Shown piece after piece: positions 7,421 through 31,060 of a stretch of 33,138 bases of DNA (position 1 is the first letter of the stretch; each line of letters begins with the position of its first letter). This stretch comes from Fimbriimonadaceae bacterium (GTDB lineage: Bacteria > Armatimonadota > Fimbriimonadia > Fimbriimonadales > Fimbriimonadaceae). The position numbers were made by a program, and so were the translations under genes. The notes under the pieces are model-generated. The model saw only the letters and a program-made list of their open reading frames with translations, had not been told where the DNA came from and searched no databases. The stretch spans positions 1-33,138 of the forward strand of contig DATLWQ010000304.1 in assembly GCA_035576225.1 (NCBI GenBank), given 5' to 3'.

Positions 7421-7423
7421 GCC

Positions 7424-11975: not shown

Positions 11976-13595
11976 ATGGCATGGCTCCTCCTACTCTTGG
12001 CGACGACAGGACAGGTCCAACAGCGGCCGCAACTCGCGTCGCAGGGGCTGAGCGGCTACATCAGCATGTCTGTGCCCGCGCCGAATGAAGGCTACGGCTA
12101 CGGCGTGAGCCTCTACGCTACGGCCTGGCCGCTCGTCAGCCGCCCGATCCGCGATTTCCAGATCGGCCTCGCGTCCATCTGGATCATCCCCGACAACAGG
12201 GACGTCAATGAGCCGCTGTTGCCGCACGGCACCGTCGCGCGCGACAACTGGCCGGAGCGCGGCCCCAGTTACCGAACGGTCTTCGAGACCATCGAAGGCG
12301 GACTAGGATTTTGGGCGAGCACGCGCTTCGGTTCGACCACCGCCAAGTTCCGTATGAACGGGACGCCGAACGGCTACAACCACGAAATCTCCTCGCCAGG
12401 CTGGGGGTTTGGCAGGACGCAGGCGCTCAAGCCGGACCAGATGGGCATCGCGCAACTCAGCCCGTGGCTGCTCGTCCCGCCCGACGGCCTCACGTTCGAA
12501 AAGGACACGCTCGGCGAGTTGTTCGGCTATGCGTGGATGGCGCTCCCTCTCACCCTGCCCAAGCAGACGACGGCAGGACTGCCGGTTCCAACCGGCAACG
12601 AGTGCTGGACCATGTTCGTCAACGCGAAGAACTTCCGCGGCCCGGTCGCCTGCTACACTCCGGTCACGTGGTCGCGCATCTCGCGCATCCATCCACCGGC
12701 GGTCGGTCGCGGCCTCGACGCGCGACCCGGAGTGGTGGCCGGCGGCGCGATCGAGATCAACACCGTTCCGCGGTTCGTCGCAAAGGCCAAAGACGGGACC
12801 GTCTACACGCGCATCCCGCAGTTGCAGTTCCCGGTCGATGAAGACGGACAGACCGTGCTCATCCACAACTTGACTCACTACGGTAAAGGTGCACTGTGGA
12901 ACCAGGTCGAAGCGTGGATCGCTGGTGGCGCCGCGCCGTCCGGTCAGTTCGACATGAGCGCCGCACGGACGCCGCCTGTCAAGGCCCAACCGCTCACGGT
13001 GCACCAGGGACCCGACCAAGCATTGATCAAAGGGTGTGAGAACTGGCTCAGCACCTCGACGCTCGACGCGACGACCTTTGGCCTTTCGTGGAAGCCAGCA
13101 GCGATCCAGCCGTGGGAACACGGCCTGGGGCGCGGCACGTTCCCCGAGTTCTTCAAGCGAGTCAAGGACGAGTGGTTGGCTATCAAGCCAGAGGACGTCC
13201 CGAAGGAGACCGGCCTCGCGGACGAGAAGTTTCCGCCAGCCGCCACGGATCAGTCTTACGTCTCGCCAGATACAAAGGACGACGTCTGGCACAAACCGGG
13301 CCCGGCGGCGGGCCCCTTCACCGCGCATCTCTCCGACGGCAGCGTCGTCACCTACTACTGGTACCGCTTCATCGACCAGCCCTCGCTGCAAGACGCCGAC
13401 CTGAGCGACGCAGAAAAGGCGAGGCTGCAGTCGGTCGTGGAGAAGATCCACCGGCAATGGACGAAAGAGAGGCAGTACCTTCCATCGCCAGGGAAGGGCA
13501 CGCTCGCATCGCTCGATCCATCGTTACTGGTGATGCCGCCGAAGGGCATGGAGGTCGGTTACGTGCCCATCGTCACGCGCCAGTCTCCACAGTAG
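11976..13595 (+). CDS. hypothetical secreted protein, no recognisable domain
   Basis: 539-aa ORF starting 25 nt after the TolC-like stop on the same strand, with a short hydrophobic N-terminus (MAWLLLLLATTG). Trp/Pro/Gly-rich, with no motif I can name. It is followed by the only clear terminator hairpin of the operon. Confidence 0.7.
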   Translation: MAWLLLLLATTGQVQQRPQLASQGLSGYISMSVPAPNEGYGYGVSLYATAWPLVSRPIRDFQIGLASIWIIPDNRDVNEPLLPHGTVARDNWPERGPSYRTVFETIEGGLGFWASTRFGSTTAKFRMNGTPNGYNHEISSPGWGFGRTQALKPDQMGIAQLSPWLLVPPDGLTFEKDTLGELFGYAWMALPLTLPKQTTAGLPVPTGNECWTMFVNAKNFRGPVACYTPVTWSRISRIHPPAVGRGLDARPGVVAGGAIEINTVPRFVAKAKDGTVYTRIPQLQFPVDEDGQTVLIHNLTHYGKGALWNQVEAWIAGGAAPSGQFDMSAARTPPVKAQPLTVHQGPDQALIKGCENWLSTSTLDATTFGLSWKPAAIQPWEHGLGRGTFPEFFKRVKDEWLAIKPEDVPKETGLADEKFPPAATDQSYVSPDTKDDVWHKPGPAAGPFTAHLSDGSVVTYYWYRFIDQPSLQDADLSDAEKARLQSVVEKIHRQWTKERQYLPSPGKGTLASLDPSLLVMPPKGMEVGYVPIVTRQSPQ

Positions 13596-13599
13596 AGGC

Positions 13600-13640
13600 G
13601 GCCGCCGCCGTAGCCAGTGGAACTACGAGCGGCGGCCTTT
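13600..13640 (+). terminator. intrinsic-terminator-like hairpin between convergent operons
   Basis: GGCCGCCGCCGTAG (13600-13613) pairs with CTACG-A-GCGGCGGCC (13623-13637), giving a 14-bp GC-rich stem with one bulge and a 9-nt loop, followed by TTT. The U-tract is short, and the reverse direction has no T-run. Confidence 0.5.
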
Positions 13641-13687
13641 CACGGATCTATGGTTCCTCAGCCTCCGCGTGCCTTAGCCTCTCGGCG

Positions 13688-16600
13688 TCAAGGCGCGGGT
13701 TTCTTCGGAGACATGAGAAAGTCGACCAATGACTTGTAGACCTTGTCTGGTTGATGGAAGTCCGGCATCTGCGTCCCCGGGTCGATCGCCTGCGGGTTCT
13801 TCAGGAACCGGAACACCCAGTCCTCTTTCAAACGCGAGGTGACCTCCGCCAGGTCGGGGCCGATCTTCTCCGTGTCCTGACCGGCGATGGACTGCTTGCC
13901 GCCCACCGGGTGACAACTCTCGCACTGGAGTTTCTTAAAGTACGTCGCGCCCTGCATCGCCAGCGGATAGACCTGCTGGTCAGCAGGGACATAGTCGTAG
14001 GGCGCGGTCTGGTTCGACATCTGCATGATGAACTCGACCAGCGTCGTCGTCTCCTCCACAGTCAGATGGAAGTTGGGCATCCGGGCGGGCTCCCACCACC
14101 TGATGCGGTGCGGCTTCATCAGGAAACTGAACAGCCACTTCGGTTTGACCTTCTCGCCTTCGCGAGTGAGGTCGGGCCCGACAGTGTGACCCACGCCGTT
14201 GAGCATGTGGCACGCCTGGCAGTTCTTCCTCAGCACCAAGAGCCGTCCCTTCGTCAGCACGGACTGGCTCGCAAAGAGCCCCGGCGTGTACTCGTTCGGA
14301 AGATCCTCGGGCTTGAGCGAGATCAGATACACCGCGAGCGCGTGCGTCTCATCCTTCGTCAGTCCGAACTTCGGCATCGCCGCCTTGATCGTCGCGGTCT
14401 CGAACTGCTTCGGGTCGTCGATCTTCGCCTGGATCCAGTCGAACAGCGTGCGCCCGACGTTCTTCGCGTTGCCATATTCCAGTTCGTCGACCGTCTTGGC
14501 ACCGACCTCCGTCAAGTCGGGAGCGGCGATGCGCTGGATCTGGCCGATGTCGTGGCATCCGGCGCACCCGCGCTTCATGATCAGTTCCTTGCCCTTGTCG
14601 ACCAGCGCCTGGTCAAAGGTCGGGCTCTCGTCCAACTTCGCTCTCGGCCGCGTCTCGATCTGGATCAGATAGTTGGTGATCAGTGCGATCTGGTCGGCGT
14701 CGAGGCCGAAGACCGGCATTTTGCTGTTCGGCAGGTACGCCTTCGGGTTCTCGATCCACGAGTAGAGCCAACTCGGCGAAGCCTTCGACGCGACGTGCGT
14801 CAGTTCCGGCCCGAACGGCGAGCCTTCGCCCTGGATCACGTGGCACCCCGTACACCCGATGGAGACGACAAGTTTGTCCGCCTTGTCCATTTGCGCCGGG
14901 GTCAAAGGCGTGTAAGTGAACTGGTGTGCAGGCTTCCAGTCGTGCAGGGTGAGCAGGTACGCCGCGATCGCCTTCGCTTCGTCCTCTTTGAATCCGAAGT
15001 TCGGCATTCGCGCTTCGACAGAGTGCGACTGCGGGTTTTCCAGCCACTTGATCAGCCAGTCATGGTCGACCTTCGCTCCGACGTGGTCGAGCGCGGGTCC
15101 GCTCTTGAACACGATGTCGCGTCCCTCGACCTTGTGGCAGCCGAGGCACCCAGAGTTCTCGAAGAGCGTCTTTCCACGGTCGAACACGTTCGTGCCCGTC
15201 ATCTGCTCGACGTCGCCGTGGCACTTCACGCACGTCGACTGCACGAGGTCGCCCTTCATCAGCGGCGTGCCCTTGCCGACCTTGCCGCCGTGCGCCTCGT
15301 TGAGGTCCAGAGCCTGGCCCCATCCGCCGTGGCACGTCGTGCAAGCGAACCGGTCAGGCGAGTGCGTCCCGATGATCGTGCCCGGGTGCGTCCGGAACGG
15401 CTGCGGCGCGTCCTTGAACATCGGGTCTTCGATCCCCATGTGGCACGTGGTGCACCGCTCAACGGTCTTGAGCCGCGGAAGCACGATCTGCTCGATCTCG
15501 GGCCTTGCAGACTCGCTCTTCTTCATTCTCGCCTGGAGTTGCGTCAGTTTCTGCTCCTGGCTGTCGTGAAACTTGTCCAGGTCGTCCTTCGACTTCTTGA
15601 GCGCGTCGACGTCAGTGCCGTCTCCAATCCTTGCCTCGGCGAGTTTGTCCACGTCCTCGGCCCAAAGGAGGTGCTGTGCATGGTCCTTCAGGTCGCCCTT
15701 GGTCCCCTCCAGAGCGAGGTTCGCCTCCGCCAATGCGAGTTTCGCCTTGGCCGCGTCGAAACTTGTCTTCGCGATCTTGATCTTGAGCGTTTCATTGGCC
15801 GGCAGCCCGAGCGTCTGCCTCTCGTAGAGGTGCTGCGCCTCGGCGTAGTTGCGCTTCGCGTCGTCGAGGCTTCGTTGCGCCGCCGTCGTATCGACCTCCA
15901 GTTGACTCGATTCGACGAGTTCGTCCTGGTCGATCTTCGGCGCTTCTGCCTGCGGCTGGGACGACTGGTCGGCCTGCCCCTTCTGGGCCGCCTGGCCCTT
16001 CGAACTGTCCGGGAACGCCTTGTCCAGTTCTCCCTCGAGGCTTGAGTTGTCATCGCCGGAAGAAGCCTGGCCCTTGCCCTTGTCGGCCCGGCCCTTGTCG
16101 CTCTGGCCCGATCCGCCGGACTCGCCGCCGCCCATCCCTGCAAGTTCTTTCTCCAAGTCGGACATGTCGCCAGAACTGCCGTCCTTCGAGGAGTCCCCTT
16201 GCGTGGCTTTGCCCTTCCCACTGTCGGTCTGCGCGCCGCCCTGGTCGGAACCGCCCATGCCGGCGAGTTCCTTTTCCAGGTCCGACATTTCGCCGGCGCT
16301 CGGGGCCGCTCCCTGGTCCGAAGTCGTGGTCTCCTCGCCCTGCGCCGACTGGATGTCCAGTTCGTCCAGGTCCGCCTCCAGTTGCTCCAAAGAAGACGCG
16401 TCTTCGTCGCGCTTGGCCAGCGCCTTGTCATAGAGGTCGCGCGACTTCTTATAGTCCGCCTCGTACGAAGGCGACTTCAGCCACGCCGTCAACTGCTGGA
16501 TCTGCTGGCCCAGCAGTTTCTGCTCTTCCTTCCTGTATTTGCTCTGGTAGTCGATCCACGAAGGGTGCGTGTCCTTCCAGATCGACAGGCCCATGACGAC

Positions 16601-16702
16601 GAGCATAACGACGCTCAGCACGAGGAATGAAGCGCTCATTTTGAACGCGCTCTTGTCCGGTTTCTTTGCTTTCTTCAGGCCCATGGCCACACCCAACTCC
16701 AC
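13688..16702 (-). CDS. membrane-anchored octahaem c-type cytochrome (3 clustered haems plus 5 tandem class-I cytochrome c domains) with a long coiled-coil/acidic N-terminal region
   Basis: Eight CXXCH motifs: CTTCH, CTTCH, CVKCH, CLGCH, CTGCH, CAGCH, CQACH, CESCH. All lie in residues 417-1004 (nt 13688-15454). The last five sit in a repeated pattern GC-x-GCH...GP-L...W...P...MP-F. An N-terminal TM helix (FLVLSVVMLVVMGLSIW) is followed by about 370 aa rich in E/D/K/Q/G/S. GTG 16702 follows GAGGA by 6 nt. An alternative ATG lies at 16684. Confidence 0.9.
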   Translation of the reverse strand: MELGVAMGLKKAKKPDKSAFKMSASFLVLSVVMLVVMGLSIWKDTHPSWIDYQSKYRKEEQKLLGQQIQQLTAWLKSPSYEADYKKSRDLYDKALAKRDEDASSLEQLEADLDELDIQSAQGEETTTSDQGAAPSAGEMSDLEKELAGMGGSDQGGAQTDSGKGKATQGDSSKDGSSGDMSDLEKELAGMGGGESGGSGQSDKGRADKGKGQASSGDDNSSLEGELDKAFPDSSKGQAAQKGQADQSSQPQAEAPKIDQDELVESSQLEVDTTAAQRSLDDAKRNYAEAQHLYERQTLGLPANETLKIKIAKTSFDAAKAKLALAEANLALEGTKGDLKDHAQHLLWAEDVDKLAEARIGDGTDVDALKKSKDDLDKFHDSQEQKLTQLQARMKKSESARPEIEQIVLPRLKTVERCTTCHMGIEDPMFKDAPQPFRTHPGTIIGTHSPDRFACTTCHGGWGQALDLNEAHGGKVGKGTPLMKGDLVQSTCVKCHGDVEQMTGTNVFDRGKTLFENSGCLGCHKVEGRDIVFKSGPALDHVGAKVDHDWLIKWLENPQSHSVEARMPNFGFKEDEAKAIAAYLLTLHDWKPAHQFTYTPLTPAQMDKADKLVVSIGCTGCHVIQGEGSPFGPELTHVASKASPSWLYSWIENPKAYLPNSKMPVFGLDADQIALITNYLIQIETRPRAKLDESPTFDQALVDKGKELIMKRGCAGCHDIGQIQRIAAPDLTEVGAKTVDELEYGNAKNVGRTLFDWIQAKIDDPKQFETATIKAAMPKFGLTKDETHALAVYLISLKPEDLPNEYTPGLFASQSVLTKGRLLVLRKNCQACHMLNGVGHTVGPDLTREGEKVKPKWLFSFLMKPHRIRWWEPARMPNFHLTVEETTTLVEFIMQMSNQTAPYDYVPADQQVYPLAMQGATYFKKLQCESCHPVGGKQSIAGQDTEKIGPDLAEVTSRLKEDWVFRFLKNPQAIDPGTQMPDFHQPDKVYKSLVDFLMSPKKPAP
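16046..16291 (-). repeat. intragenic tandem duplication, 2 x 123 nt (41-aa unit beginning [ED]MSDLEKELAGMGG)
   Basis: Residues 138-178 and 179-219 of the octahaem protein both start with MSDLEKELAGMGG followed by Gly/Ser/Asp/Lys-rich low complexity. At the DNA level the conserved cores lie at about 16250-16291 and 16127-16168. Confidence 0.8.
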
Positions 16703-17316
16703 CCTGGTCCTCGGAAGAACTGTCCGATCACGATGAGAACGAGCCCTATGTATACAAACATCCAGTAGAACCTCCGTCGAGCGAGTTCGGCCCTCTTTTC
16801 ATCGTCAAAACGAGGCGAGCCCGCGTACTTCCTCAGGAGAACGAAACTGACGATCCATAGAATGAACGTCGGGAACCCGTAAACGCGGATGGTGTCCGCG
16901 AAACCTGGCGCCATCGAGTGCACGAGTTCCCATATGATGTCGTCGAATACGGGCATCACGATGATTGCGACCAGGAAGCCGGAAGGAATGATCGCCTTCC
17001 TGCCTTTGCAGTAGGGGATGGTGCACAAGGTCGCGACGATCGCGCCCGGCACCATCACTCCGGCGATGAACGGCGGCGCGTAGTGCAGCAGTTCCTGCAG
17101 CCCCAGGAAGTACCACGGAGCCTTCGCCGGGTTCGGAGTCTTGCCGGGGTTGGCGATCTGCTCCAGCGGCGCGTTGAAGAAGTACGCGATCAGGAACAGC
17201 GCCATGCACAGCAGCCCGAACGCGATGAACTCGCGAGCGATCAGGTTCGGATACGTCGAGACGGTCTCTTCTTCCTCGGTGTCCTTGACCGTCGACCTGC
17301 CGGGGATGAAGGCCAT
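16675..17316 (-). CDS. cytochrome b C-terminal half (b6f subunit-IV-like) with extra C-terminal helices
   Basis: 213 aa. The Qo-site block reads NPAKAPWYFLGLQELL, aligning to the PEWYF block of cytochrome b/subunit IV. AAGGAG lies 9 nt upstream of ATG 17316. Confidence 0.85.
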   Translation of the reverse strand: MAFIPGRSTVKDTEEEETVSTYPNLIAREFIAFGLLCMALFLIAYFFNAPLEQIANPGKTPNPAKAPWYFLGLQELLHYAPPFIAGVMVPGAIVATLCTIPYCKGRKAIIPSGFLVAIIVMPVFDDIIWELVHSMAPGFADTIRVYGFPTFILWIVSFVLLRKYAGSPRFDDEKRAELARRRFYWMFVYIGLVLIVIGQFFRGPGWSWVWPWA

Positions 17317-17371
17317 CAGGCCGTACTCCTTGTCGTCGTGCCGATCTTCGTTGGTGTTGTCGGTGTTCAGT

Positions 17372-18124
17372 TTATAGACCTCCCGAAAAACCGTCTTTGC
17401 GCACCCTCCACAAGTGGTACACGATGAGCGCGACCATCACGAGCGGCACCGCGACGCAGTGCAGAACGTAGAACCGCAGCAGCGCGGGCTGGTCGACCGT
17501 CGCACCGCCGAGCAGCACGAACCGAATGTCCGCGCCGGCGAACGGCACCGCGCCCGCCATGTTCGTGCCGACCGTCACCGCCCAGAACGCAAGTTGGTCC
17601 CAAGGCAGCAGATAGCCGGTGAAACTCAGGAAGAACGTAAGTACCAGCAGGATGACGCCCACCACCCAGTTGAACTCCCGCGGGTGCTTGTACGCCTTGG
17701 AGACGAACACGCGGATCATGTGCAGGAACACGACGACAACCATCGCGTGGGCCCCCCACCGGTGGACGTTGCGCACGATCTTTCCGAGAGAGATCGCCGT
17801 CTGCAGGTCCACCATGTCCGCGTGGGCGCGCTCGACCGATGGCACGTAGTAGAACATCAGCAGCACGCCGGTCACCGTCAGGATCAGGAACAGCGCCGCA
17901 GAAAGCCCGCCAAGGCAGTACGTGCAGTTGAACTTGATCGCCTGAGCCTTGATCTTCGACGGGTGCAGGTGGAACCAGAAACTCGTGATCGCGATCTCCG
18001 ATCGTTCGCGGTCTGTCCGGGGGTACGGCTTGGTAAAGATCGACCGCCAGACCAGCGACTGCTTCACGGTCTCGACGAACGTCTTCTTTGTGCCTGTCTT
18101 TTCTTCGTTTGGGATCTGACTCAT
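17372..18124 (-). CDS. cytochrome b6-like N-terminal half of a split cytochrome b
   Basis: 250 aa. Paired His haem-b ligand blocks are present ([19 protein letters not shown] and [23 protein letters not shown]). There is a b6-type TYCLGG block. The ATG overlaps the Rieske stop as ATGA (18121-18124). Confidence 0.92.
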
Positions 18125-18600
18125 GCCTTGAATCCTTTCTTGCGGTCGAGTTCTCCCGATTTGTCCACGATCAGCACGCCAAGCGCGTTCTCAGTGATCT
18201 CGAAGGAGTCGAGCGGGCGCGGCGCCGGGCCTGCGTAGTTCGTGCCGTCGTGGTGGTACTTGCTGCCGTGGCACGGGCAGAAAAAGCCGTTCGTCGCCGG
18301 GTCGGAGCGGACAGTACAGCCCAGGTGGGTGCAGACCGCCGAGATCGCGAGCAGTTTGTCGCCGTCGCGGACGATGAAGACCTTCTGGTCCTTCAGGAAC
18401 GTCGCCGTCCCATCCGGGAAGTCGTCGAGTTTGCCGACGCGGAACTTGTTTGGCTTGCCGTATTCGACGTTCGGCACGAGGAACCGCAGGGAGCCGATCA
18501 TGATCAGGAAAAGCGTGGTGCAGAAGGTCCACAGACCGGCCAGGAACAGCCTCCTGGTCGTCTTTTCGGACTTCGTCTCGGGCCCGCGCTTCACAGTCAC
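18121..18600 (-). CDS. Rieske [2Fe-2S] subunit with Tat-type signal anchor
   Basis: ORF 18121..18912 trimmed to GTG 18600 ([22 protein letters not shown]...), with an alternative GTG at 18594. GGAGGG lies just upstream, and the GTG overlaps the preceding stop as GTGA. Cluster motifs CTHLGC and CPCHGS are present, with a twin-Arg TRRLFL. Confidence 0.88.
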
Positions 18601-20450
18601 ATGCCCTCCTGATAGCGGCCCATCCACATCGCGTCGACGGGGCATCGTTCGACGCAGAGGCCACACCTCGTGCACAGTTCTTCGTCTTTCAGCATTGCAT
18701 ACCATCCGGGGCCGTCGTATGAGCGGTCGGACGCCATGTCTTCGAGCGTCATTGAGTGCCGCTTTTGTGCGAGGTCCTTCAACTTGTCGTCCACGTCGAC
18801 GTTGTCGACCGGCACGATCCGCAGACAACCGTACGGGCAGACGTCGACGCATCCGCCGCACAGGACGCACTTGTCCCAGTCGACCATCGGGCTCAGGTTG
18901 CACTTGAGGCAACGCTGTGCCTCACGTACCGCCTCCATCCGCGAGAAGCCGACCTCGACCTCCGTGATGCCGACCCGCCGATCCATCGGGAGCGTCTTGA
19001 TCTCCTGCCTTGGTATGTAATCGTAGTCCTTGGCCATGTGGTGCGTCTGCAGGCGAATGACCTGCGGCTCCCTGTGCCTCGGGTCTGGCGCTTCGGCGCC
19101 CGTCAAGTACCGATGGATCTCGAAGGCCGCCTTGCGTCCGTCTGCGACCGCCTCGATCGCGGTCCTTGCTCCAAACGCCGCATCGCCGCCCGCGAACACG
19201 CCGGGGATCGAGGTCGCCATCGTGTCGGGATCGGTCTTGAGCAGCCCGCGCGAGGTGAGCGTGGCCCGGCTTTCGTCGCTCAGGAAGGAGAGGTCCGTCT
19301 CCTGGCCGATCGCCAGCAGGATCGTGTCGCAGTCGAACGTCGACTCCGACCCTTCTTCGAACTTCGGGGAGAACCGGCCCCTATCGTCGAACACCGAAAG
19401 GCAGCGCCTCGTCACGAGCCCCGCGCACTTGCCGTCCCTTGCCTCGACCTCGACCGGCCCGACGGAGTTGTGGAGCACGATGCCCTCGTTCAGCGCTTCG
19501 ACGATCTCCTCTTCATAGGCCGGCATCTCCTCCGGTGACTCCAGGCACATCAAGTGGACCTCCGTCGCGCCAGACCGCTTCGCGATCCTCGCGACGTCGA
19601 CCGCCGGACCGAGCGCGACGCCCGTCGTCGCCTTAGCCGTGTCCTCGGCCGTCAGTTCGAGCGGCCCGCGGATCGCCGTCCTAGCGACGTCCATCGCGAC
19701 GTTTCCGCCGCCGATGACGACGACCCGCTGCCCAATCTCCACCTTATAACCTAGGTTTTGGTTGAGGAGAAAATCGATTCCGTTGATGACGCCGTCGCTC
19801 TCGATGCCTGCGATCGGCAGTCCGCGCCCCTTCTGCGCACCGACCCCCAGGAAAACCGCGTCATAACCGCCGCTGAGCAGATCTTCGAGCGAGATATCGT
19901 CGCCGATGCGACAGTTCGTGCGGAGATCCACGCCGACCGAGAGCAGCGACTCGATCTCCTTGTTCATGATGTCCCGCGGGAGCCTGTACTCGGGGATTCC
20001 GTGCACCAGCATCCCGCCCGGACGGTCGCTCGCTTCGAAGAGCGTCGCCTGAAAGCCGAGCAGCGTCAGGTCGTGAGCGGCAGTCAGGCCCGCCGGGCCC
20101 GCGCCGATGACGGCGACCTTCTTCTTCGTCTTGTTGAGCCCGTCAAAGTCGCCGCCGGACTTGAATCCTGCGCTCGAATGGTCTGCCGCCGCCCGCTTCA
20201 GCCCGCGGATCGAGATCGGGTCGTCGTGCTTGCCGCGCCGACACGCGAACTCGCACGGGTGGCCGCAGATCCTCGCGCAAATGTTGACGAACGGGTTGGG
20301 GAAGCGGGCTATCTCGTACGCTGCATCGAAGTCGTTCCTGGCGATCGCCTCGATGTACCCTTGTGCGTTTGTTTCTACTGGGCACGCGCCACGGCAACTG
20401 ACGAGTGACCTGAGCCACTTCGAGTCCATGGCACGTGCCCTGTATTTCAT
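18597..20450 (-). CDS. GltD-like (glutamate synthase small-subunit family) FAD/NAD(P)-dependent oxidoreductase with a C-terminal 2x[4Fe-4S] ferredoxin domain
   Basis: 617 aa. The N-terminal Cys cluster is CRGACPVETN...CARICGHPCEFACRRG. Two Rossmann GxGxxG motifs are present (VAVIGAGPAGLTAA, VVVIGGGNVAMDVA), plus a GMLVHGIPEYRLP block. Two C-terminal CxxCxxCxxxCP motifs are present (CVLCGGCVDVCP, CTRCGLCVERCP). No signal peptide, so it is predicted cytoplasmic. Confidence 0.88.
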   Translation of the reverse strand: MKYRARAMDSKWLRSLVSCRGACPVETNAQGYIEAIARNDFDAAYEIARFPNPFVNICARICGHPCEFACRRGKHDDPISIRGLKRAAADHSSAGFKSGGDFDGLNKTKKKVAVIGAGPAGLTAAHDLTLLGFQATLFEASDRPGGMLVHGIPEYRLPRDIMNKEIESLLSVGVDLRTNCRIGDDISLEDLLSGGYDAVFLGVGAQKGRGLPIAGIESDGVINGIDFLLNQNLGYKVEIGQRVVVIGGGNVAMDVARTAIRGPLELTAEDTAKATTGVALGPAVDVARIAKRSGATEVHLMCLESPEEMPAYEEEIVEALNEGIVLHNSVGPVEVEARDGKCAGLVTRRCLSVFDDRGRFSPKFEEGSESTFDCDTILLAIGQETDLSFLSDESRATLTSRGLLKTDPDTMATSIPGVFAGGDAAFGARTAIEAVADGRKAAFEIHRYLTGAEAPDPRHREPQVIRLQTHHMAKDYDYIPRQEIKTLPMDRRVGITEVEVGFSRMEAVREAQRCLKCNLSPMVDWDKCVLCGGCVDVCPYGCLRIVPVDNVDVDDKLKDLAQKRHSMTLEDMASDRSYDGPGWYAMLKDEELCTRCGLCVERCPVDAMWMGRYQEGM

Positions 20451-20481
20451 GCGTTCATGTTCCTTTCAATTTCGCGCTCTG

Positions 20482-21849
20482 TTAGAACGCGAATCTGAAG
20501 AAAACCCCCAGACTGTCGTCGCCGTTGACGTCTCTAGTGTATTCGCCTGCGATCGCAAAGTTGGTTCGCAGGAAGTGCGTGTAGTTGAACGTGTACGACT
20601 CGTGCTGCCAGTCGGGGTTGTCGCCCGAGTTGACGCGGTCGTAGCGCGCGGTGACGATGTCGTTGGGTCCAGTAATGAACCCGAGTTGTGCGAAGTAGCC
20701 GCTGACGTCCATCGGAGTCGAGTTGACCACCGCGGTCGGGTTGTCCGCCCTACCAGTGACGGCAGCCGCCTCAAAGATATACGGTTTCTGATTATTGCCC
20801 GCTTTCTTGATCGGCTTGCCGAACTGCCAGGTCAGGTCCGCACCGTAGAAGTGGAACTTGTTCTCGAACTCCGCCAGGGTGTTCGGATCCTGGACGATCG
20901 TCCGACCTGAGTAGCCAAAGAGTCCGAGTTGCGAGTCGTTGTCGAAGTTGAACCCGACGCGGGCCCAGTAGTCGGTGACCCCCGGCGAGGACGTGATTGG
21001 GGCGTTCGGATCGTCTGACTGGCCTTCTGTGCTCCCGTCGGAGATCGCGACCTCCCAGATCATTCCTTTCATGGAGTCGTAGGGGTCGCCCTGGTCTCCA
21101 AGTTGGAGGTCTTGTCCGCCCGCGAAGCCGTTCACCGGCACCAGTTTGTTCTGGGAGTCGCCGGAGGCTCCGTCGTCGCCGCTGGACGGGTTGCCCTTGA
21201 CGAGATCGGAGGTGATGGTCGAGCCGACGGTGCCGAACAGCCGTATGCCGCCGACGATGTGGTCGAGCGCGAACCCGCCCACGTTGACGTCATAGATGCT
21301 GTACGGTGCGTCCGTCAGGCTGAACTCGTTGCTGAGGCCGTTCTCCATCAGGTCGAGCAGACCGACCTGCAGAAAGACGTTCTGGCCGCCGAGGAAACTG
21401 AAGACGGCGTTGGCCTTCTTGACCGCAGCCTCTCCGTCCTCGACCGAGATCTCGCTGAAGAACCCCATGTTCGGGGCCAGCGTCCCTCCGGCCAGCAGTT
21501 CTGCCTCGTTGAAGAAGTCAAACGAGTTGCGGTCGCTTGCGTTCACCCATTCGGGGAACGACATCGAACTCTTCAGTTGGATCGCGAACGGGATGCTCGA
21601 GGGCAGGCTGAAGTTGGGGTCCTCGTCGGCGTAGATCTTCTTCGTCTTCGAGTCGCCCGGCTGTTGATAGCCGCTCATCCTAAAGTTCTTCCCGAACGTC
21701 GTCAACTTCGGAAACCCGATGTGACAGCGCGCGCATGTCGTGTGATACTTTCTTGCGAATTCTGGTATTGCCTGCGCCGTCTCCGCCACTCCGAAGAGAG
21801 CGACTGCGCAGAGTGTGACCAGGTAACCCATTCTATGTGTTGCTTTCAT
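20482..21849 (-). CDS. monohaem cytochrome c fused to a predicted outer-membrane beta-barrel (Cyc2/Cyt572-like cytochrome-porin)
   Basis: 455 aa with a signal peptide (...GVAETAQA/IPEF). A single CARCH sits at residues 39-43 (nt 21721-21735) within FARKYHTTCARCHIGFPKLTTFGKNFRMSGY. The rest is Gly/Asp/Asn/aromatic-rich with alternating pattern, ending in an OMP-type C-terminus GVFFRFAF. Confidence 0.65.
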   Translation of the reverse strand: MKATHRMGYLVTLCAVALFGVAETAQAIPEFARKYHTTCARCHIGFPKLTTFGKNFRMSGYQQPGDSKTKKIYADEDPNFSLPSSIPFAIQLKSSMSFPEWVNASDRNSFDFFNEAELLAGGTLAPNMGFFSEISVEDGEAAVKKANAVFSFLGGQNVFLQVGLLDLMENGLSNEFSLTDAPYSIYDVNVGGFALDHIVGGIRLFGTVGSTITSDLVKGNPSSGDDGASGDSQNKLVPVNGFAGGQDLQLGDQGDPYDSMKGMIWEVAISDGSTEGQSDDPNAPITSSPGVTDYWARVGFNFDNDSQLGLFGYSGRTIVQDPNTLAEFENKFHFYGADLTWQFGKPIKKAGNNQKPYIFEAAAVTGRADNPTAVVNSTPMDVSGYFAQLGFITGPNDIVTARYDRVNSGDNPDWQHESYTFNYTHFLRTNFAIAGEYTRDVNGDDSLGVFFRFAF

Positions 21850-21917
21850 GTACTATCTTCCGTTTCAGTACTTACTTACTGTTTTTGTTTGACTTACAAA
21901 GTGTCCAAGCCCCGTTC

Positions 21918-22529
21918 CTACGTCTTCACCTTCAGCAGGATCGTCGTGTTGCCCGTCGCTCCGACGGTGATGCTCTCATCGGTCGAACCCGTAGGAGTCC
22001 ACACCTTCAGAGTGTACGAGCCGGCCGGCACGTCCGGGATCTTGAAAAGACCGGACTTGTCGGTCACGGCGAAGAACGGGTTGTCCAGGACTGCGATGTA
22101 TCCTTTCATCGCCGCATGGATGTGGCACCTGACTGCAACGACTCCGAACTTGTCAAACGTGACGTCGGAGTACTTGCCTTTGTCAGGCTGGCTGATGTTG
22201 AACTTGAAGAGGCGAGAATTCGCGTAGACGTTGTGGAGAAACGGGTCGGAGTTCAGGAACCGCACTGTCGTGCCTACCATGATCGCGAGCGTGTCAGGGA
22301 CGAACGTCTTGTCCTTCTGGTCCATGAGCACTGGCTTTTCCGGCGCTTTGAACTTGCCGGGCACCGACGCGATGTAGACGACCGCGCCCGTAACTCTCTT
22401 GCCATCGACGGTCGATTGGACTGCACCCTGGACGTTGCCTGCCATGGCAAATGGGGCCAACGTCGCGACCACCGCGAGGGCGGTCAGAGCCCGCTGGGAG
22501 AGTCCTCGGTTGCGTAACATTTCTTTCAT
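21918..22529 (-). CDS. periplasmic cupredoxin-like (type-1 copper) protein flanked by carboxypeptidase-regulatory-like beta-sandwich segments
   Basis: 203 aa with a signal peptide (ALTALAVVATLAPFAMA). The candidate Cu ligand set is His99 (SDPFLHNV) plus Cys135-x2-His138-x2-Met141 (VRCHIHAAMKG, nt 22107-22127). The C-terminal GLFKIPDVPAGSYTLKVW resembles a CarboxypepD_reg-like segment. AAGGAG abuts ATG 22529, so the second ATG (22520) may be the true start. Confidence 0.65.
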   Translation of the reverse strand: MKEMLRNRGLSQRALTALAVVATLAPFAMAGNVQGAVQSTVDGKRVTGAVVYIASVPGKFKAPEKPVLMDQKDKTFVPDTLAIMVGTTVRFLNSDPFLHNVYANSRLFKFNISQPDKGKYSDVTFDKFGVVAVRCHIHAAMKGYIAVLDNPFFAVTDKSGLFKIPDVPAGSYTLKVWTPTGSTDESITVGATGNTTILLKVKT

Positions 22530-22558
22530 GCTCCTTGCGAACGTTCTAGTTCGCTCTA

Positions 22559-22574
22559 GTTGAACTTTGTCACA
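22559..22574. promoter_or_regulatory. Crp/Fnr-family-like site GTTGA-ACTTTG-TCACA (TGA-N6-TCA core)
   Basis: The minus strand reads TGTGA-CAAAGT-TCAAC, matching 8 of 10 positions of the CRP half-sites. The site is centred 37 nt upstream of the cupredoxin ATG. It overlaps the tandem 10-bp repeat CGTTCTAGTT/CGCTCTAGTT at 22542-22561. Confidence 0.35.
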
Positions 22575-22590
22575 CGGGCCATCTGACCCG

Positions 22591-22606
22591 TATGACCGTG
22601 GTCATA
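22591..22606. promoter_or_regulatory. perfect 16-bp palindrome TATGACCGTGGTCATA (TGA-N6-TCA core), candidate Crp/Fnr-family operator
   Basis: Perfect dyad in the divergent intergenic region between the respiratory operon and the ccmF-like gene, 32 bp centre-to-centre from the 22559-22574 site. A second dyad overlaps it: ACCGTGG (22595-22601) with CCACGGT (22613-22619). Confidence 0.45.
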
Positions 22607-22752
22607 CCTATGCCACGGTGCCATTTCTAGACTCAAATGCCTGTTCCAACGATACTCCAACGGTCCTAGGATGCACAATGGGTGCAGGCGTCCCGCCGAG
22701 CAGCGCGCACACCGGGTGCGAGCAGGTCGAGCGCAGAGGCGCCAGCCTTGTG

Positions 22753-25248
22753 ATGAGCCAGTTTTCTCAGCCTCTTCCGTTTTGGATATCGTTCGGCTCC
22801 CTCGCCGCAGCCTTGGTGGTCGTCGGAGTCGTTGCCTTCGCGGGCTGTGCGCTCTTGTATGCTTTTGGAAAAGAGACGGCGCTCGCCAAGAAGATCGGCA
22901 ACGTCTGCTTTGCGACCGGCATCGGCACCCTCGTCTTCGCGATGGTCGCGCACCTCTCACTGATCCTGACCAAGCAGTACTCCTTCCAGTACGTGTGGAC
23001 GCACACCAGCAACGAACTGCCGTTCATCTATAGGCTTTCGGCCGCGTGGGCGGGCCAGGAGGGGAGTTTCCTGCTGTGGGCGGCCATGACCGGAATCATA
23101 GGAGCGATCGTCGTACGTTGGACGGGGAAGTACCGCCGCTGGTATCTCGTCAGCCTCGCCGGCGTCCTCGCCTGCCTCATGGGCATCCTCGCCTACGAAT
23201 CGCCTTTCAGACTGATCACGATCACCCCAGAACTGATGGCCGCGCTCCCCGCAGGAGTCACGATGGTCCTCCCTCCTGACGGCCAGGGCCTCAACCCCTC
23301 GCTCGTCAGCCCATGGATGGTCATCCATCCCTGGATCATCTTTGCGGGCTTCGGTTCGCTCGGCGCTCTCTTCGCCTGGTCGGTCTCGGCAGCCGTCTCC
23401 GCAGACTGGGACGGCTGGGCCAAGGCGGTCCGGCCAGTCGTGATCCTTTCGATGAGCCTGATCGGCCTCGGCCTGGTCTTCGGCGGCGTTTGGGCGTACG
23501 AGACCCTCGGGTGGGGAGGGTTCTGGGCGTGGGACCCGGTCGAGAACGTCGCGCTCGTCCCCTGGCTGCTTTCGATCGTCTTCGCGCACGGGCTCTACAT
23601 CCAGAACCACCGCCACAAGTGGACCCGGTTCAACCTCGTCATGGGCGCGCTGCCGTTCCTCTCGTTCGCCTGGGGCACGCTATTAACAAGGAGTGGAGCC
23701 CTCACAGCCGTCAGCGTCCACAGTTTCGCCCGTATGGAGGAGGGCGCGCACGGAATCATGTTCTGGCTCGTGCGGTCAATCGTCCTCATCGTCCTCTTCG
23801 GAGGTGGCTTTGTGGCGGCCCGCAAGATTCGTGCAGCCGAAGAAGGTTCGGATGCACGGGCGGCATCCCCGCTGAGCATCGTCTTGGTCGCCGTCGCGTT
23901 CTTCATAGTGGCCGCAATCGTGTTCGCTGTCCTCACGTCCGCCGGAGAGGGGCGCTCGTTCCAGTGGTCGGTCTATAGCGGCTTTCTGATCTCTCTGGTC
24001 GTCGGTCTCGCGGCGTTCCTCGCAGGCGTCCTAGTCGGCAAAGCCGCCGCACCGGCCGTCGCTTCCGGACGCGAGGAGGTCGCCGAACACCGCACCAAGG
24101 CGATCGCGATCGGGATGGCTCTTGTTGCAGTCCCCGGCGTGCTCGCGGCGATTGGTTCAGCCGTCCCGCTGTTTGCGACCATCGTCTCCAAAAAACCCAG
24201 TGTCGTCGAGGAGGGAACCTACAACCGCTCGCTCGGCGCGTTCCTCGTCCTTATATTAATCGTCGTCGGCATCGCGCCCTTCATGGGCTGGACCGCCACC
24301 AAGCGAGAGCGCATCGCCAGGGTCCTTCTCTCGTCCGGCATCGGCCTGGTGCTCGCCGTCGCCTCCGTCTTCGTACTCAGGAAGTTCGACCTCACGCGTC
24401 CTGACGGCGTGCCGATGAAGGCACAAGAACTTGTCCTCTATGAGGCCATCATCGCAGCCTGGCTCTTCGCCGTCGTCGCCAACGCAGTCCGCCTGTTCGA
24501 GCGGATGAAGGCCAAGACCGGCAACCCCGGCCCCTTTCTCGCGCACGCTGGTGTCGCTCTCGTCCTGTTAGGAATCGTAGTGTCGAGGGCCTTCGGCAGG
24601 CAACAGACCGGCATCGTCGCGGTCGGCGAGCCGGCGACAGTCATTGGCGCACAGTTGAGCGTCCCCTCCGAACCCTCGCAGACCGCAATGCTCAAGCCCG
24701 GAAACAAGGTGCCGTTCAAACTGGAGTGGGCCAAGCGAGACTACACTCTGTCGCCCGTAGTCTACGAACAGCCTACGGCGATGGGAAGCCTCCAGCCCGT
24801 CACGAGGCCCGACATCCGTTCGACTCCGTTCTACGACCTCTACCTCTCGGTCGCGGACATGGTCAAGGACTACGTGGACCCAGTCCGTTTCGGGCTCGGC
24901 GACACCAAGGCCGTCGGCGACTTCATGTTCACGCTCGCATCGCTCCAGCAGCAGACGCCGTCGACCGCCGTCGCGACCTTCAACGTCCGCAACTCCGACG
25001 GCGAGACGCGCACGTTCAGAGTGCAGCGCGGCACCGCGGACGGCACCTCGGACCCTGTCCCGTTCGCGGACTTTGTGGGCATGCGGCTCGACTCGGCTGA
25101 CGTCGCGAGCGGCTCAGTCGTCCTCTCGACCCCCTATGAGCGACCGGTGTTTCCCGTCGAACTCATGTTCCGTCCCATGACGGTATTGGTCTGGATCGGG
25201 GCTTTGGCGACCATGATGGGCATGGTCTTCGTCTATCGGCGCAAATGA
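22753..25248 (+). CDS. ccmF: CcmF/NrfE-family cytochrome c haem lyase, extended (831 aa)
   Basis: ORF 22567..25248 trimmed to ATG 22753 (MSQFSQPLPFWISFG...). The Trp-rich haem-handling motif is WAYETLGWGGFWAWDPVENVALVPWL. CcmF-like blocks are seen throughout (AAWAGQEGSFLLW, LNPSLVSPWMVIHPW, LLTRSGALTAVSVHSFA), with a C-terminal TM matching the CcmF end. Confidence 0.88.
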   Translation: MSQFSQPLPFWISFGSLAAALVVVGVVAFAGCALLYAFGKETALAKKIGNVCFATGIGTLVFAMVAHLSLILTKQYSFQYVWTHTSNELPFIYRLSAAWAGQEGSFLLWAAMTGIIGAIVVRWTGKYRRWYLVSLAGVLACLMGILAYESPFRLITITPELMAALPAGVTMVLPPDGQGLNPSLVSPWMVIHPWIIFAGFGSLGALFAWSVSAAVSADWDGWAKAVRPVVILSMSLIGLGLVFGGVWAYETLGWGGFWAWDPVENVALVPWLLSIVFAHGLYIQNHRHKWTRFNLVMGALPFLSFAWGTLLTRSGALTAVSVHSFARMEEGAHGIMFWLVRSIVLIVLFGGGFVAARKIRAAEEGSDARAASPLSIVLVAVAFFIVAAIVFAVLTSAGEGRSFQWSVYSGFLISLVVGLAAFLAGVLVGKAAAPAVASGREEVAEHRTKAIAIGMALVAVPGVLAAIGSAVPLFATIVSKKPSVVEEGTYNRSLGAFLVLILIVVGIAPFMGWTATKRERIARVLLSSGIGLVLAVASVFVLRKFDLTRPDGVPMKAQELVLYEAIIAAWLFAVVANAVRLFERMKAKTGNPGPFLAHAGVALVLLGIVVSRAFGRQQTGIVAVGEPATVIGAQLSVPSEPSQTAMLKPGNKVPFKLEWAKRDYTLSPVVYEQPTAMGSLQPVTRPDIRSTPFYDLYLSVADMVKDYVDPVRFGLGDTKAVGDFMFTLASLQQQTPSTAVATFNVRNSDGETRTFRVQRGTADGTSDPVPFADFVGMRLDSADVASGSVVLSTPYERPVFPVELMFRPMTVLVWIGALATMMGMVFVYRRK

Positions 25249-25254: not shown

Positions 25255-25959
25255 CTACTCGAAACTGCTCCTCTTGAGTTCGTCCGTGTCGATGATCGTC
25301 ACGTAGTGGTCGTCTGTCCTGACCAGCCCGCTCCTCTGCCAGCGGCTGAACACGCGGATCGCCGACTCGACGGTCGTCCCGGCCATTTCCGCCAGGTCGC
25401 GCCGCATCAGCGGCATCTGCAGCCTGACGCCTGCGGACGTCTCTTCTCCATACGACTGCGCAAGCAGCAGCAGGATCACAGCGATTTTGGCCTCGACGCT
25501 CCCGGTCGAGAGGTGCGCCATGATCTCCATCCTCTCCCTGAACCGGTGGGTCGTCCGCTTGAGCAGGCTCGCCCGGAGCAGTCTGTTGTTGTCGTAGATC
25601 GGCAGGAAGGCGGCCTTTGGAATCTTGAGGTACCAGGTGAAGCAGACCGCGCGCGCCATCAGGGGGCAGCCTGTCCCCTCGATCATTCCGAGCAGCCCGA
25701 AGATCTGCCCGGGGCCGAACACTTCAAAGGTCGTCTGGTGGCCGGGGCCCATGCTCCGGACCATCTTGACGAACCCGGCGCCGACGAGACCGTAGAATTC
25801 GACCTGGCTCCCATTGATCCAAATTGTCTCGCCCCTTTCGGCGGATGCCATGTGAGACACCTTCGCCAGTTCGTCGAGATCCTCGGCCGGGAGGGTGTTG
25901 AAGAGTGTGCTAGATCTTAGGGCTCCAATATTCGTAGGTCGCTCTGGGACCGAAGACAC
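25255..25959 (-). CDS. Crp/Fnr-family transcriptional regulator (no N-terminal FNR Cys cluster)
   Basis: 234 aa with a cNMP-binding-type beta-roll (LFNTLPAEDLDELAK...GETIWINGSQVEFYGLVGAGFVKM) and a C-terminal HTH (RRDLAEMAGTTVESAIRVFSRWQRSGLV). The start is GTG 25959. The first in-frame ATG would truncate the domain. Confidence 0.85.
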   Translation of the reverse strand: MSSVPERPTNIGALRSSTLFNTLPAEDLDELAKVSHMASAERGETIWINGSQVEFYGLVGAGFVKMVRSMGPGHQTTFEVFGPGQIFGLLGMIEGTGCPLMARAVCFTWYLKIPKAAFLPIYDNNRLLRASLLKRTTHRFRERMEIMAHLSTGSVEAKIAVILLLLAQSYGEETSAGVRLQMPLMRRDLAEMAGTTVESAIRVFSRWQRSGLVRTDDHYVTIIDTDELKRSSFE

Positions 25960-27741: not shown

Positions 27742-27749
27742 ATGGCCCA

Positions 27750-27755
27750 ATGATA
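27750..27755 (-). promoter_or_regulatory. -10-like hexamer TATCAT, 8 nt upstream of the decarboxylase ATG (leaderless-type geometry)
   Basis: The minus strand reads GGGGA TATCAT TGGGCCAT ATG. The same GATATCATT 9-mer sits at the same offset upstream of the Crp/Fnr gene. Confidence 0.35.
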
Positions 27756-27831
27756 TCCCCGGGTTTGGTTTGGTGCGATTCGTGCAGTAGACTCAAAGTC
27801 ATAAGCCTCACTGGCGAGGCGGAGGAGTAGC

Positions 27832-31016: not shown

Positions 31017-31023
31017 ATTTGTG

Positions 31024-31029
31024 ATGTTA
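31024..31029 (-). promoter_or_regulatory. -10-like hexamer TAACAT, 7 nt upstream of the ydeP-like ATG (leaderless-type geometry)
   Basis: The minus strand reads CGG TAACAT CACAAAT ATG. No SD and no good -35; the phased A-tract array lies immediately upstream. Confidence 0.4.
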
Positions 31030-31060
31030 CCGAAGGACGAGATCGCGCTCTTTTATGGAT

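Follow-up and report, generated by a model that had tools for sequence, protein, structure and literature searches.

A predicted NAD(H)-linked Rieske/cytochrome b complex encoded in one operon with a Cyc2-type cytochrome-porin in Fimbriimonadaceae

We have examined a stretch of 33,138 nucleotides from a Fimbriimonadaceae bacterium (Armatimonadota; NCBI GenBank assembly GCA_035576225.1, contig DATLWQ010000304.1, positions 1 to 33,138; the whole of this stretch is referred to here as the window). It belongs to a metagenome contig of 51.9 kb (ENA ERZ1756113) and carries on its minus strand, from 22529 down to 13688, seven co-directional genes that either overlap one another or are no more than 68 nt apart (Table 1). 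They encode a secreted cupredoxin-like protein, a Cyc2-type cytochrome-porin, a 617-aa FAD/Fe-S oxidoreductase, and four proteins expected to form the core of a Rieske/cytochrome b (R/b) complex: a Rieske protein, a cytochrome b6-type protein, a protein resembling subunit IV (SUIV) and an octahaem cytochrome c. From the synteny and coupling of these genes, together with their homology to a complex that has experimental backing, we conclude that the oxidoreductase is very probably a subunit of the R/b complex; its proposed role in exchanging electrons with NAD(H) is considered below.

Table 1. The seven co-directional genes of the window, listed in the order in which they lie along the minus strand.
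Product	Coordinates	Strand	Description
Secreted cupredoxin-like protein	21918-22529	-	203 aa; first gene of the co-directional cluster
Cyc2-type fused monohaem cytochrome-porin	20482-21849	-	455 aa; no Pfam match; 31 nt upstream of the oxidoreductase gene
NAD(P)(H)-binding FAD/Fe-S oxidoreductase subunit	18597-20450	-	617 aa; ATG start
Rieske [2Fe-2S] subunit	18121-18600	-	159 aa; Pfam Rieske, 3.5e-14
Cytochrome b6-type subunit	17372-18124	-	250 aa; four transmembrane helices; Pfam Cytochrome_B, 8e-46
Subunit IV-like protein (SUIV)	16675-17316	-	213 aa; Pfam Cytochrom_B_C
Membrane-anchored octahaem cytochrome c	13688-16702	-	up to 1004 aa; Pfam Cytochrom_C, five matches

An earlier sequence-only reading of this DNA had described the oxidoreductase as a 617-aa, GltD-like protein whose stop codon overlaps the Rieske start. 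The reading frame is as it described, as is the C-terminal ferredoxin domain with its two CxxCxxCxxxCP motifs, which corresponds to two Fer4 motifs in Pfam (residues 521-608) and follows a Fer4_20 domain (residues 18-92) and a Pyr_redox_2 domain (residues 110-438). It had also listed two GxGxxG dinucleotide-binding motifs and N-terminal cysteine clusters, and each of these stands in part: the first dinucleotide motif is VIGAGPAG, but the second, VIGGGNVA, has the form GxGxxA; and there are six cysteines in the N-terminal domain, but the RCLxC pair that is N-terminal in NfnB is displaced to residues 513-517. In HMMER alignments the NfnB N-terminal segment EAQRCLQC aligns with residues 487-523 of the oxidoreductase, and the same permuted order is found in 9bov_A and 8oh5_C (Bfu-type NfnA/StnC). 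Both CVLCGGCVDVCP and CTRCGLCVERCP can be read in the oxidoreductase sequence.

Alignment of 22-28 homologues reveals 16 invariant or near-invariant cysteines (C19, C23, C58, C62, C66 and C70, the pair in R-C-L-x-C at 513-517, and those of the two CxxCxxCxxxCP motifs), together with an invariant glutamate, E67, in an HPCE motif. This complement would suffice for four [4Fe-4S] clusters arranged in series with the FAD; four clusters are thus predicted, and the assignment of particular cysteines to each is inferred by analogy with NfnB. Neither a transmembrane or hydrophobic segment nor a signal peptide was found in the sequence, and the protein is therefore expected to be cytoplasmic.

The best matches of the oxidoreductase among protein structures, as judged by phmmer, are the NfnABC subunit 9bov_A (309 bits), Thermococcus sibiricus NfnA (9n5u_A) and StnC (8oh5_C), followed by NfnB/NfnI (4ylf_B and 5jca_L, 254-244 bits), GltD (168 bits) and DPD (101 bits). 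An AlphaFold2 model, built from a 28-sequence alignment without the Kuenenia row (predicted local distance difference test score, pLDDT, 73.6; predicted template-modelling score, pTM, 0.69), gives the same ranking in Foldseek, with relatives of the NfnABC/Stn/NfnB type ahead of GltD, and its top templates are those that Hauser et al. found for the Kuenenia protein Kuste4570. The description as GltD-like is thus right as to superfamily fold but imprecise, since NfnB and Bfu-type NfnA are the nearer relatives (309-244 as against 168 bits). Identity as GltD itself was rejected, given the 168-bit match, scores of 220-234 bits with the NCBIfam GltD models TIGR01317 and TIGR01318 whose cutoffs are 448-483, and the lack of a gltB gene in the window; a GltB-like partner, which the sequence-only reading had named as an observation favoring a soluble enzyme, is likewise not seen there. 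Domain searches of the window proteins found no gene for GltB, NfnA, a HydB/HydC-like protein or a ferredoxin near the oxidoreductase. The nearest NCBIfam model is PRK12771, 'NAD(P)-binding protein', and the score is below its cutoff as it is below that of every family. Homologues annotated from metagenome-assembled genomes (MAGs) of Fimbriimonadaceae are the most similar, at 58-65% identity. A further, very large group at about 48%, of like length and domains, comes from Terriglobia, Bryobacterales, Nitrospinota and others, and the database names of these homologues are 'FAD-dependent oxidoreductase' or 'formate dehydrogenase beta subunit'.

The variation immediately past the second Rossmann strand may provide clues to coenzyme specificity. 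NfnB, NfnI, NfnABC, StnC and Escherichia coli GltD have YRR[T/S] at this position, and so do some of the R/b-linked homologues described below, with the NADPH-type YRRT present in the copies from Kuenenia (L004), two Chloroflexota (L025 and L026) and one Nitrospinota locus (L033). The window protein reads CLES (residues 301-305), and every member of its clade reads CLE[S/K/R/N/T]. Loss of the arginine pair and gain of a glutamate points by the usual Rossmann rule to NADH, and this suggests that the window oxidoreductase uses NADH rather than NADPH. We note that CLES is also present in many homologues without R/b genes nearby, for example in Collinsella and Clostridia. The clade is further set apart by an insertion of 30-60 aa (30 aa at residues 262-293 in the window protein, where pLDDT is low) and by a longer linker within the ferredoxin domain.

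The junctions between these genes are tight. At the boundary of the oxidoreductase and Rieske genes the sequence GTGA contains the oxidoreductase stop codon TGA (18599-18597), preceded by the ATG of M617, and a GTG (18600-18598) in the Rieske frame; the overlap at 18597-18600 claimed by the sequence-only reading is therefore real, and the GGAGGG that it noted within the last oxidoreductase codons lies at 18609-18604. The GTG at 18600 is only 3 nt from this GGAGGG, whereas another GTG in the same frame (18594-18592) is 9 nt away, a spacing that suggests the true Rieske start may be at 18594, 2 nt past the oxidoreductase stop; the coupling is tight whichever GTG is used, and the existing gene call for the source sequence likewise has the 4-nt overlap. 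The cytochrome b ATG overlaps the Rieske TGA in the same manner (ATGA), and the SUIV and cytochrome c genes overlap by ATGGGCCTGA if cytochrome c begins at the likely ATG start at 16684. A mechanically called 157-aa open reading frame at 18191-18664 on the same strand, which could be mistaken for the Rieske gene, was rejected; it is in the wrong frame, is rich in Arg and Pro and has no Pfam match, and is an artefact of high G+C content overlapping the Rieske gene, which itself lies in the frame of the mechanical open reading frame 18121..18912. A scan of 13000-23200 for promoters and terminators gave nothing above the expectation from shuffled sequence, and is thus uninformative as to where the operon begins and ends.

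We have searched 84 fetched loci (80 of them from a one-genome-per-species scan, and all referred to by number as L001 and so on) by tblastn with the window proteins. Rieske, cytochrome b and SUIV genes adjoin the oxidoreductase homologue in 23 of the 84, and R/b genes were found by this search in none of the other 60. Within the clade of the window protein (at least 44% identity) they come directly after the oxidoreductase gene in all 20 loci, the window included, for which downstream sequence is available; the 21st member, L020, ends at a contig edge. Three homologues that were looked up, in Fimbriimonadaceae (L001), Terriglobia (L002) and Nitrospinota (L003), directly precede a Rieske or cytochrome b gene. 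Loci of this clade are numerous in Acidobacteriota and are also found in Eisenbacteria (L007), Ardenticatenales (L011), Zixibacteria (L012) and Actinomycetota (L030), and there are more distant R/b-linked copies in Chloroflexota (L025 and L026), Nitrospinota (L033) and Kuenenia, so that the linkage spans eight phyla (Armatimonadota, Acidobacteriota, Eisenbacteria, Chloroflexota, Zixibacteria, Actinomycetota, Nitrospinota and the anammox Planctomycetota). A lack of conserved adjacency had been put forward at the outset as evidence that would count against a shared complex; the adjacency instead holds in every clade locus that could be assessed, and is far beyond chance. Moreover, the gene order varies (oxidoreductase-Rieske-b, oxidoreductase-b-SUIV-Rieske, Rieske-oxidoreductase-b and Rieske-b-SUIV-c-oxidoreductase) while the linkage is preserved, a classic signature of functional linkage. 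Seven loci (L002, L003, L005, L016, L018, L025 and L026) have a 4-nt stop/start overlap at the oxidoreductase junction, and among the 21 related loci that have a gene downstream the distance from the stop to the following start is about 16 nt or less in all but two (overlaps of up to 16 nt, gaps of up to 13 nt); the two exceptions are Kuenenia, with a gap of 81 nt, and L017, in which no start was found.

The relationship to the NAD(P) subunits of the anammox R/b complexes, which the sequence-only reading had raised as a comparison to be made, proves to extend over the full length of the protein. The Kuenenia sp. R/b-3 locus (L004) was recovered through the PDB sequence of Kuste4569, and the window oxidoreductase is 37% identical to its Kuste4570 orthologue over residues 8-612, the ferredoxin domain included (E value 6e-114). 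The window cytochrome b is 53% and the SUIV 35% identical to their Kuenenia counterparts.

The proteins encoded downstream have features expected of an R/b core. The Rieske protein contains a Tat-like motif (TRRLFLAG), a single transmembrane anchor, and CTHLGC and CPCHGSKY motifs, and its best PDB match is 9rk4 (Kuste4569; 1.1e-30), well ahead of the b6f Rieske proteins. Both the Ser and the Tyr that raise the potential of the cluster are present, and by this motif it is of the high-potential type; among the 24 associated Rieske proteins examined, 23 have the Ser of CPCHGS, and in the other, that of L011, the motif was not found. Kuenenia Rieske proteins of this kind have measured potentials above +300 mV, which form the basis of the bifurcation argument made for that organism (PMC12954380). 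The cytochrome b aligns with spinach b6 and has the four haem-ligating histidines, a YCLGG haem-cn motif (Cys70), and an arginine, R242, corresponding to Kuenenia Arg247. It also has His52, equivalent to Kuste4571 His43, the proposed ligand of an extra haem b between the monomers (Hauser et al., PMC12954380); this histidine is invariant in the 24 associated cytochromes b, an invariance that does not imply specificity to such complexes. We note separately that a second cysteine lies three residues before the haem-cn cysteine (CTYC, within NCTYCLGG; residues 67-70, 17915-17926). SUIV has five predicted transmembrane helices, as judged by hydrophobic segments, and a Qp-site motif, APWYF.

The octahaem cytochrome c has an N-terminal transmembrane segment (residues 23-41) and eight CxxCH motifs, the first of them only at residue 417. 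The intervening 350 or so amino acids (residues ~50-400; 15500-16550 in the window) are acidic, of low complexity, rich in Gly, Ser and Gln and coiled-coil-like, and include the phrase DMSDLEKELAGMGG twice; the segment could be a long tether spanning the periplasm. A homologue of this cytochrome is encoded downstream in most of the related loci.

Upstream of the oxidoreductase gene, the 455-aa protein begins with a signal peptide followed by AIPEFARKY, HTT, CARCH, IGF and PKL in succession. The published definition of Cyc2 requires AXPXFAR[Q/K][T/Y], a single CXXCH, PXL four residues on, and a length of at least 365 aa (Keffer 2021, PMC8406198), and the window protein has every one of these elements. 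An AlphaFold2 model of moderate confidence (pLDDT 71.7) is mostly beta strand over residues 88-454, and its top Foldseek matches are the 16-strand porins OmpU, OmpT, OprO and PorB, of which OprO has been given as a structural homologue in Cyc2 papers (PMC8406198) and PorB in the analysis of Cyc572. On the strength of the published motif and the predicted porin fold, it is a Cyc2-type cytochrome-porin. At least 13 loci, the window included, have a gene for such a protein just before that for the oxidoreductase (the others being L001, L002, L005, L007-L010, L013-L015, L020 and L023), and the encoded proteins keep the pattern AIPxF[A/S]R…CxxCH…PxL; those with any database name are called 'hypothetical protein'. 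The first gene of the cluster encodes a protein matching Pfam Copper-bind (1.5e-4), with a C-terminal beta-sandwich of the CarboxypepD_reg type and, by inspection, candidate type-1 copper ligands H99, C135, H138 and M141 (CHIHAAM; C-x2-H-x2-M), and it is kept in 14 related loci (15 with the window). In other loci the periplasmic partner differs, being an EB_dh (PF09459) haem-b protein in Nitrospinota (L003, 2070-3029) and an HAO-like octahaem protein in Kuenenia (L004, 12535-14289); it is thus the periplasmic partners that change, and the cytoplasmic module stays constant. Cyc2 genes have been noted previously in Acidobacteriota and Armatimonadota MAGs (PMC9671151), and the nearest published arrangement is that of Zixibacteria RBG-1, with a PetAB complex within an MtrAB-like Fe-oxidation cluster (PMC3903129); our literature search found no description of an operon combining Cyc2 with an NAD-linked R/b complex.

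Taking these observations together, the specific arrangement to which we give about even credence is that the oxidoreductase is the n-side, NAD(H)-binding Fe-S flavoprotein of a b6f-type R/b complex of the anammox kind, and that this complex bifurcates electrons from quinol to NAD+. The complex would consist of the Rieske protein, a four-helix cytochrome b, a five-helix SUIV and the membrane-anchored octahaem cytochrome c, all encoded in one tightly coupled operon. Electrons would pass between NAD(H), the FAD, two NfnB-type [4Fe-4S] clusters (C19/C23, C58/C62/C66/C70/E67 and C514/C517), the two [4Fe-4S] clusters of the C-terminal ferredoxin domain, and the n-side haems of cytochrome b, which would include bH, a haem cn bound at Cys70 and perhaps a further haem ligated by His52 from two b subunits. 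Quinol would be oxidised at the intact Qp site, with one electron going downhill through the high-potential Rieske protein and the octahaem cytochrome to a pool of copper protein, Cyc2 and oxidase, and the other going to the b haems and then up the Fe-S chain to NAD+, instead of reducing quinone. Such a scheme is a form of quinone-based electron bifurcation, and should be reversible. The hosts use menaquinone. It is the retention of the Rieske Ser in menaquinone hosts that inclines us toward bifurcation, and a like argument is backed by measured potentials in Kuenenia (PMC12954380).

Several observations weigh against this reading. Cyc2 normally delivers electrons rather than accepting them, so that forward bifurcation fits its presence indirectly, and a downhill flow from NADH to the complex is simpler in heterotrophs. 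The NADPH-type YRR motif is replaced by CLES, and Kuste4570 Arg511, a proposed contact of the extra haem, is a Gly in the window protein. The haem-cn cysteine is absent from L001, the closest relative (TYGLGG), and from all of the Acidobacteriota copies (YYLG[T/S]), so that haem cn is no general point of entry; it seems to have been lost on repeated occasions in the oxidoreductase-linked clade. In a neighbour-joining tree of the oxidoreductases (403 columns, 91 sequences, 100 bootstraps) no single clade of R/b-linked proteins is recovered, and one origin or several would be compatible with the tree. The window clade is one group of 21 tips with a bootstrap of 57, the anammox, Chloroflexota and L033 copies are placed elsewhere on branches that, like the deep nodes, are unsupported, and monophyly of all the R/b-linked proteins is recovered in none of the 100 replicates; recruitment may therefore have occurred more than once. 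The sister of the window clade (bootstrap 65 with these included) is a pair of Capsulimonadaceae (Armatimonadota) proteins of the same domain layout and 36-37% identity (L019, 9869-11941, 654 aa; and L021), in whose neighbourhoods neither R/b nor other redox genes were found, and which thus appear to be stand-alone homologues.

The same complex might run in reverse, with NADH as the donor feeding electrons through the FAD and Fe-S clusters into the n-side haems or the Qn site; it would then be an NADH:quinone or NADH:cytochrome c (cupredoxin) oxidoreductase with a Q-cycle, much as in ferredoxin/FNR-b6f cyclic flow, or, in an alternative form, would confurcate electrons from NADH and from Fe(II) onto quinone at Qp. 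We regard this as a tenable but less probable account overall. It is thermodynamically downhill and needs no special potentials, and the glutamate of CLES suggests NADH over the biosynthetic NADPH; Cyc2 as a known point of electron entry fits confurcation at Qp, and the binding of ferredoxin-NADP+ reductase (FNR) to b6f offers a precedent (Zhang 2001, as cited in PMC5600118). The anammox homologues, however, have been argued from measured potentials to run toward NAD(P)H (PMC12954380), and haem cn, the entry for stromal electrons in b6f, is missing in most members of the clade. Simple NADH entry would also have no need of a high-potential type of Rieske protein in organisms that use menaquinone. 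Fimbriimonadaceae, Terriglobia and Bryobacteraceae are mainly heterotrophs in which NADH is plentiful, which favors the reverse direction, and for such heterotrophic hosts we consider a role as NADH donor, or in Fe(II) confurcation, to be nearly as plausible as bifurcation.

Two other explanations seem to us improbable. The oxidoreductase could be a soluble, stand-alone enzyme, either a GltD/NfnB-like partner or a ferredoxin:NAD(P) oxidoreductase, that is merely co-transcribed with the R/b genes. It lacks a membrane segment and falls under every NCBIfam family cutoff, and homologues of the same layout without R/b genes exist not only in Capsulimonadaceae but in an Actinobacteria MAG, an Alphaproteobacteria MAG and several Firmicutes; set against this are an adjacency that survives changes of order across phyla in every clade locus with downstream sequence, the recurrence of start/stop overlaps at the junction, the lack of a GltB-, NfnA- or HydB-like gene in the window, and the report of the homologous anammox protein within the complex, as relayed in PMC5600118. 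It is slightly less probable still that the flavoprotein is itself flavin-bifurcating in the manner of NfnB, serving by way of its C-terminal ferredoxin domain to join NAD(P)H and the b haems with a third, soluble partner of low potential such as ferredoxin. The proximal cluster of NfnB has an invariant Glu ligand. The invariant E67 of the HPCE motif resembles it, and the closest solved relatives (NfnABC, StnABC and NfnI) all bifurcate; but GltD and DPD have the same fold and do not, the four predicted clusters form one chain in series with no NfnA-like second branch of [2Fe-2S] and FAD, and the operon contains neither a ferredoxin nor an NfnA-like gene.

Lithotrophs that live on high-potential donors, Fe(II) or nitrite for example, must make NAD(P)H; how they do so is an old question, and the usual answer is reverse electron transport through bc1 and complex I. 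To our knowledge only the anammox bacteria have so far offered a studied R/b complex with its own NAD(P) reductase, and its function there is unproven. What the present comparison adds is a sister version of the NAD-linked R/b complex that is widespread in common soil phyla, is probably NADH-using and is tightly coupled at the level of translation, so that the problem is widened past anammox and there are candidate hosts besides those hard-to-culture bacteria. The class of complex is itself known, and the link to Cyc2 is the interesting part. The recurrent association with a Cyc2-type protein and a blue-copper protein provides a testable hypothesis for the missing uphill step in neutrophilic iron oxidation, and if the flow is in the opposite direction it points to a new respiratory route from NADH to the cell surface. 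Rather speculatively, the seven-gene operon could connect the cell surface with the pyridine-nucleotide pool of the cytoplasm, as a conduit complete in itself. If so, it would couple oxidation of extracellular Fe(II), or another redox couple, directly to reduction of NAD+ by quinone-based bi- or confurcation in one R/b complex, bypassing reverse bc1 and reverse complex I, in soil and sediment Acidobacteriota, Armatimonadota, Eisenbacteria and their relatives.

The operon is flanked by genes of several kinds. Divergent from it is a gene on the plus strand (22567-25248, with its real start probably near 22754) for a CcmF/NrfE-type haem lyase, and beyond this, on the minus strand, a gene for a Crp/Fnr-family regulator (25255-25959); a search of the window for FNR/CRP boxes (TTGAT-N4-ATCAA with one mismatch) found no sites, and thus no link to this regulator. 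In L001 the operon is also adjoined by CcmF and CcmE genes. Convergent with the cytochrome c gene is a 539-aa open reading frame (11976-13595, plus strand) in which neither a Pfam or NCBIfam match nor a haem motif or obvious membrane segment was found, and further away on the plus strand (5483-11951) is a CusCBA-like heavy-metal RND efflux system. It consists of a membrane-fusion protein containing two heavy-metal-binding (HMBD) domains, a pump of the AcrB family and an outer-membrane factor, and may have a bearing on the supply of copper to the cupredoxin or on copper tolerance. Ordinary housekeeping genes lie on either side (58-2084 and 3351-4717, both on the minus strand, and 26266-32957), and include those for kynureninase-like, tryptophan 2,3-dioxygenase and radical-SAM proteins, QueC, a PLP decarboxylase, GlpX FBPase, a molybdopterin oxidoreductase (28779-31016), a nitrilase-family hydrolase and an AhpC/TSA-type redoxin.

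Comparison with other systems reveals resemblances to individual parts of the operon. By NCBIfam names alone, there is some likeness to the ext operon of Geobacter for selenite and tellurite reduction; the cytochrome b scores 278 bits with the ExtP model against a cutoff of 290, and the ExtQ and ExtS models match SUIV and the C-terminus of the cytochrome c below their cutoffs, while no NCBIfam Ext model matched the oxidoreductase. GltD shares with the oxidoreductase a superfamily fold and the logic of NAD(P)H, FAD and [4Fe-4S] clusters, but the window protein has an extra ferredoxin domain and a permuted Cys segment, and has neither the YRR motif nor an adjacent gltB. The Bfu-family NfnABC/StnABC enzymes and NfnB/NfnI-L have in common with it the FAD/NAD(P) core and the pair of [4Fe-4S] clusters predicted in the window protein; these, however, are soluble enzymes that bifurcate electrons and have partners of the NfnA/HydB type and a YRR site for NADPH, whereas the window protein has CLES and is encoded in the operon of a membrane complex. 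In cyclic flow around b6f, FNR and ferredoxin provide an n-side flavoprotein that exchanges electrons at the haem cn/bH side, as summarised in PMC5600118, but FNR has an unrelated fold, binds loosely, is encoded outside the pet operon and has no Fe-S wire.

The uphill pathway of Acidithiobacillus ferrooxidans, encoded by rus and petI and running through Cyc2, rusticyanin, cytochrome c4, reverse bc1 and NDH-1, has much of the same cast, with an outer-membrane Cyc2, a periplasmic blue-copper protein, a c-type cytochrome and an R/b complex, and its petI operon carries an NAD-linked gene, sdrA (PMC10654088). It differs in that the window has all of its parts in one operon, that the window complex is of the b6f type, and that the pyridine-nucleotide module is an Fe-S flavoprotein, which could bypass the quinone pool and NDH-1.

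The closest comparison is with the R/b complexes of anammox bacteria. Those of Kuenenia have their own NAD(P) oxidoreductase subunit, the proposed acceptor of the low-potential electron of quinol bifurcation (Kartal 2013, as cited in PMC12954380), and complexes with both cytochrome b and the oxidoreductase are reported to be expressed there (de Almeida 2016, as cited in PMC5600118); Dibrova et al. note that 'subfamily G' cytochromes b co-occur with such proteins 'in many other cases', and refer to complexome data for Kuenenia (PMC5600118). The complex class is thus already described (Kartal 2013, Dibrova 2013 and de Almeida 2016, in the accounts given of them in PMC5600118; Hauser 2025, PMC12954380), and the present operon is no discovery of principle. 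In Kuenenia stuttgartiensis the systems are R/b-3 (Kuste4569-4574) and R/b-2 (Kustd1480-1485), with Kuste4570 and Kustd1483 as the oxidoreductases (PMC12954380). Shared with these are an NfnB-type FAD/NAD(P) protein that has a C-terminal 2x[4Fe-4S] domain and is encoded in the R/b operon, a split, b6-type cytochrome b with CxGG and the His43 equivalent, the Rieske Ser and Tyr, a multihaem c subunit, and a five-helix SUIV (predicted in the window; for anammox, PMC12954380). The differences are that the Kuenenia order is Rieske-oxidoreductase followed by the 81-nt gap, whereas the window has oxidoreductase-Rieske with a 4-nt overlap; that Kuste4570 has YRRT rather than CLES, and is without the 30-aa insertion at 262-293 and the longer ferredoxin linker; that the window c subunit is a long-linker octahaem protein, with no HAO-like gene in the window; and that the periplasmic partners in the window are Cyc2 and a cupredoxin, in a host outside the anammox bacteria, and the oxidoreductases do not group in the neighbour-joining tree. 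The window operon therefore encodes a distinct variant of the anammox-type R/b class, one that is probably of the NADH type, tightly coupled, linked to Cyc2 and a cupredoxin, and found in non-anammox phyla.

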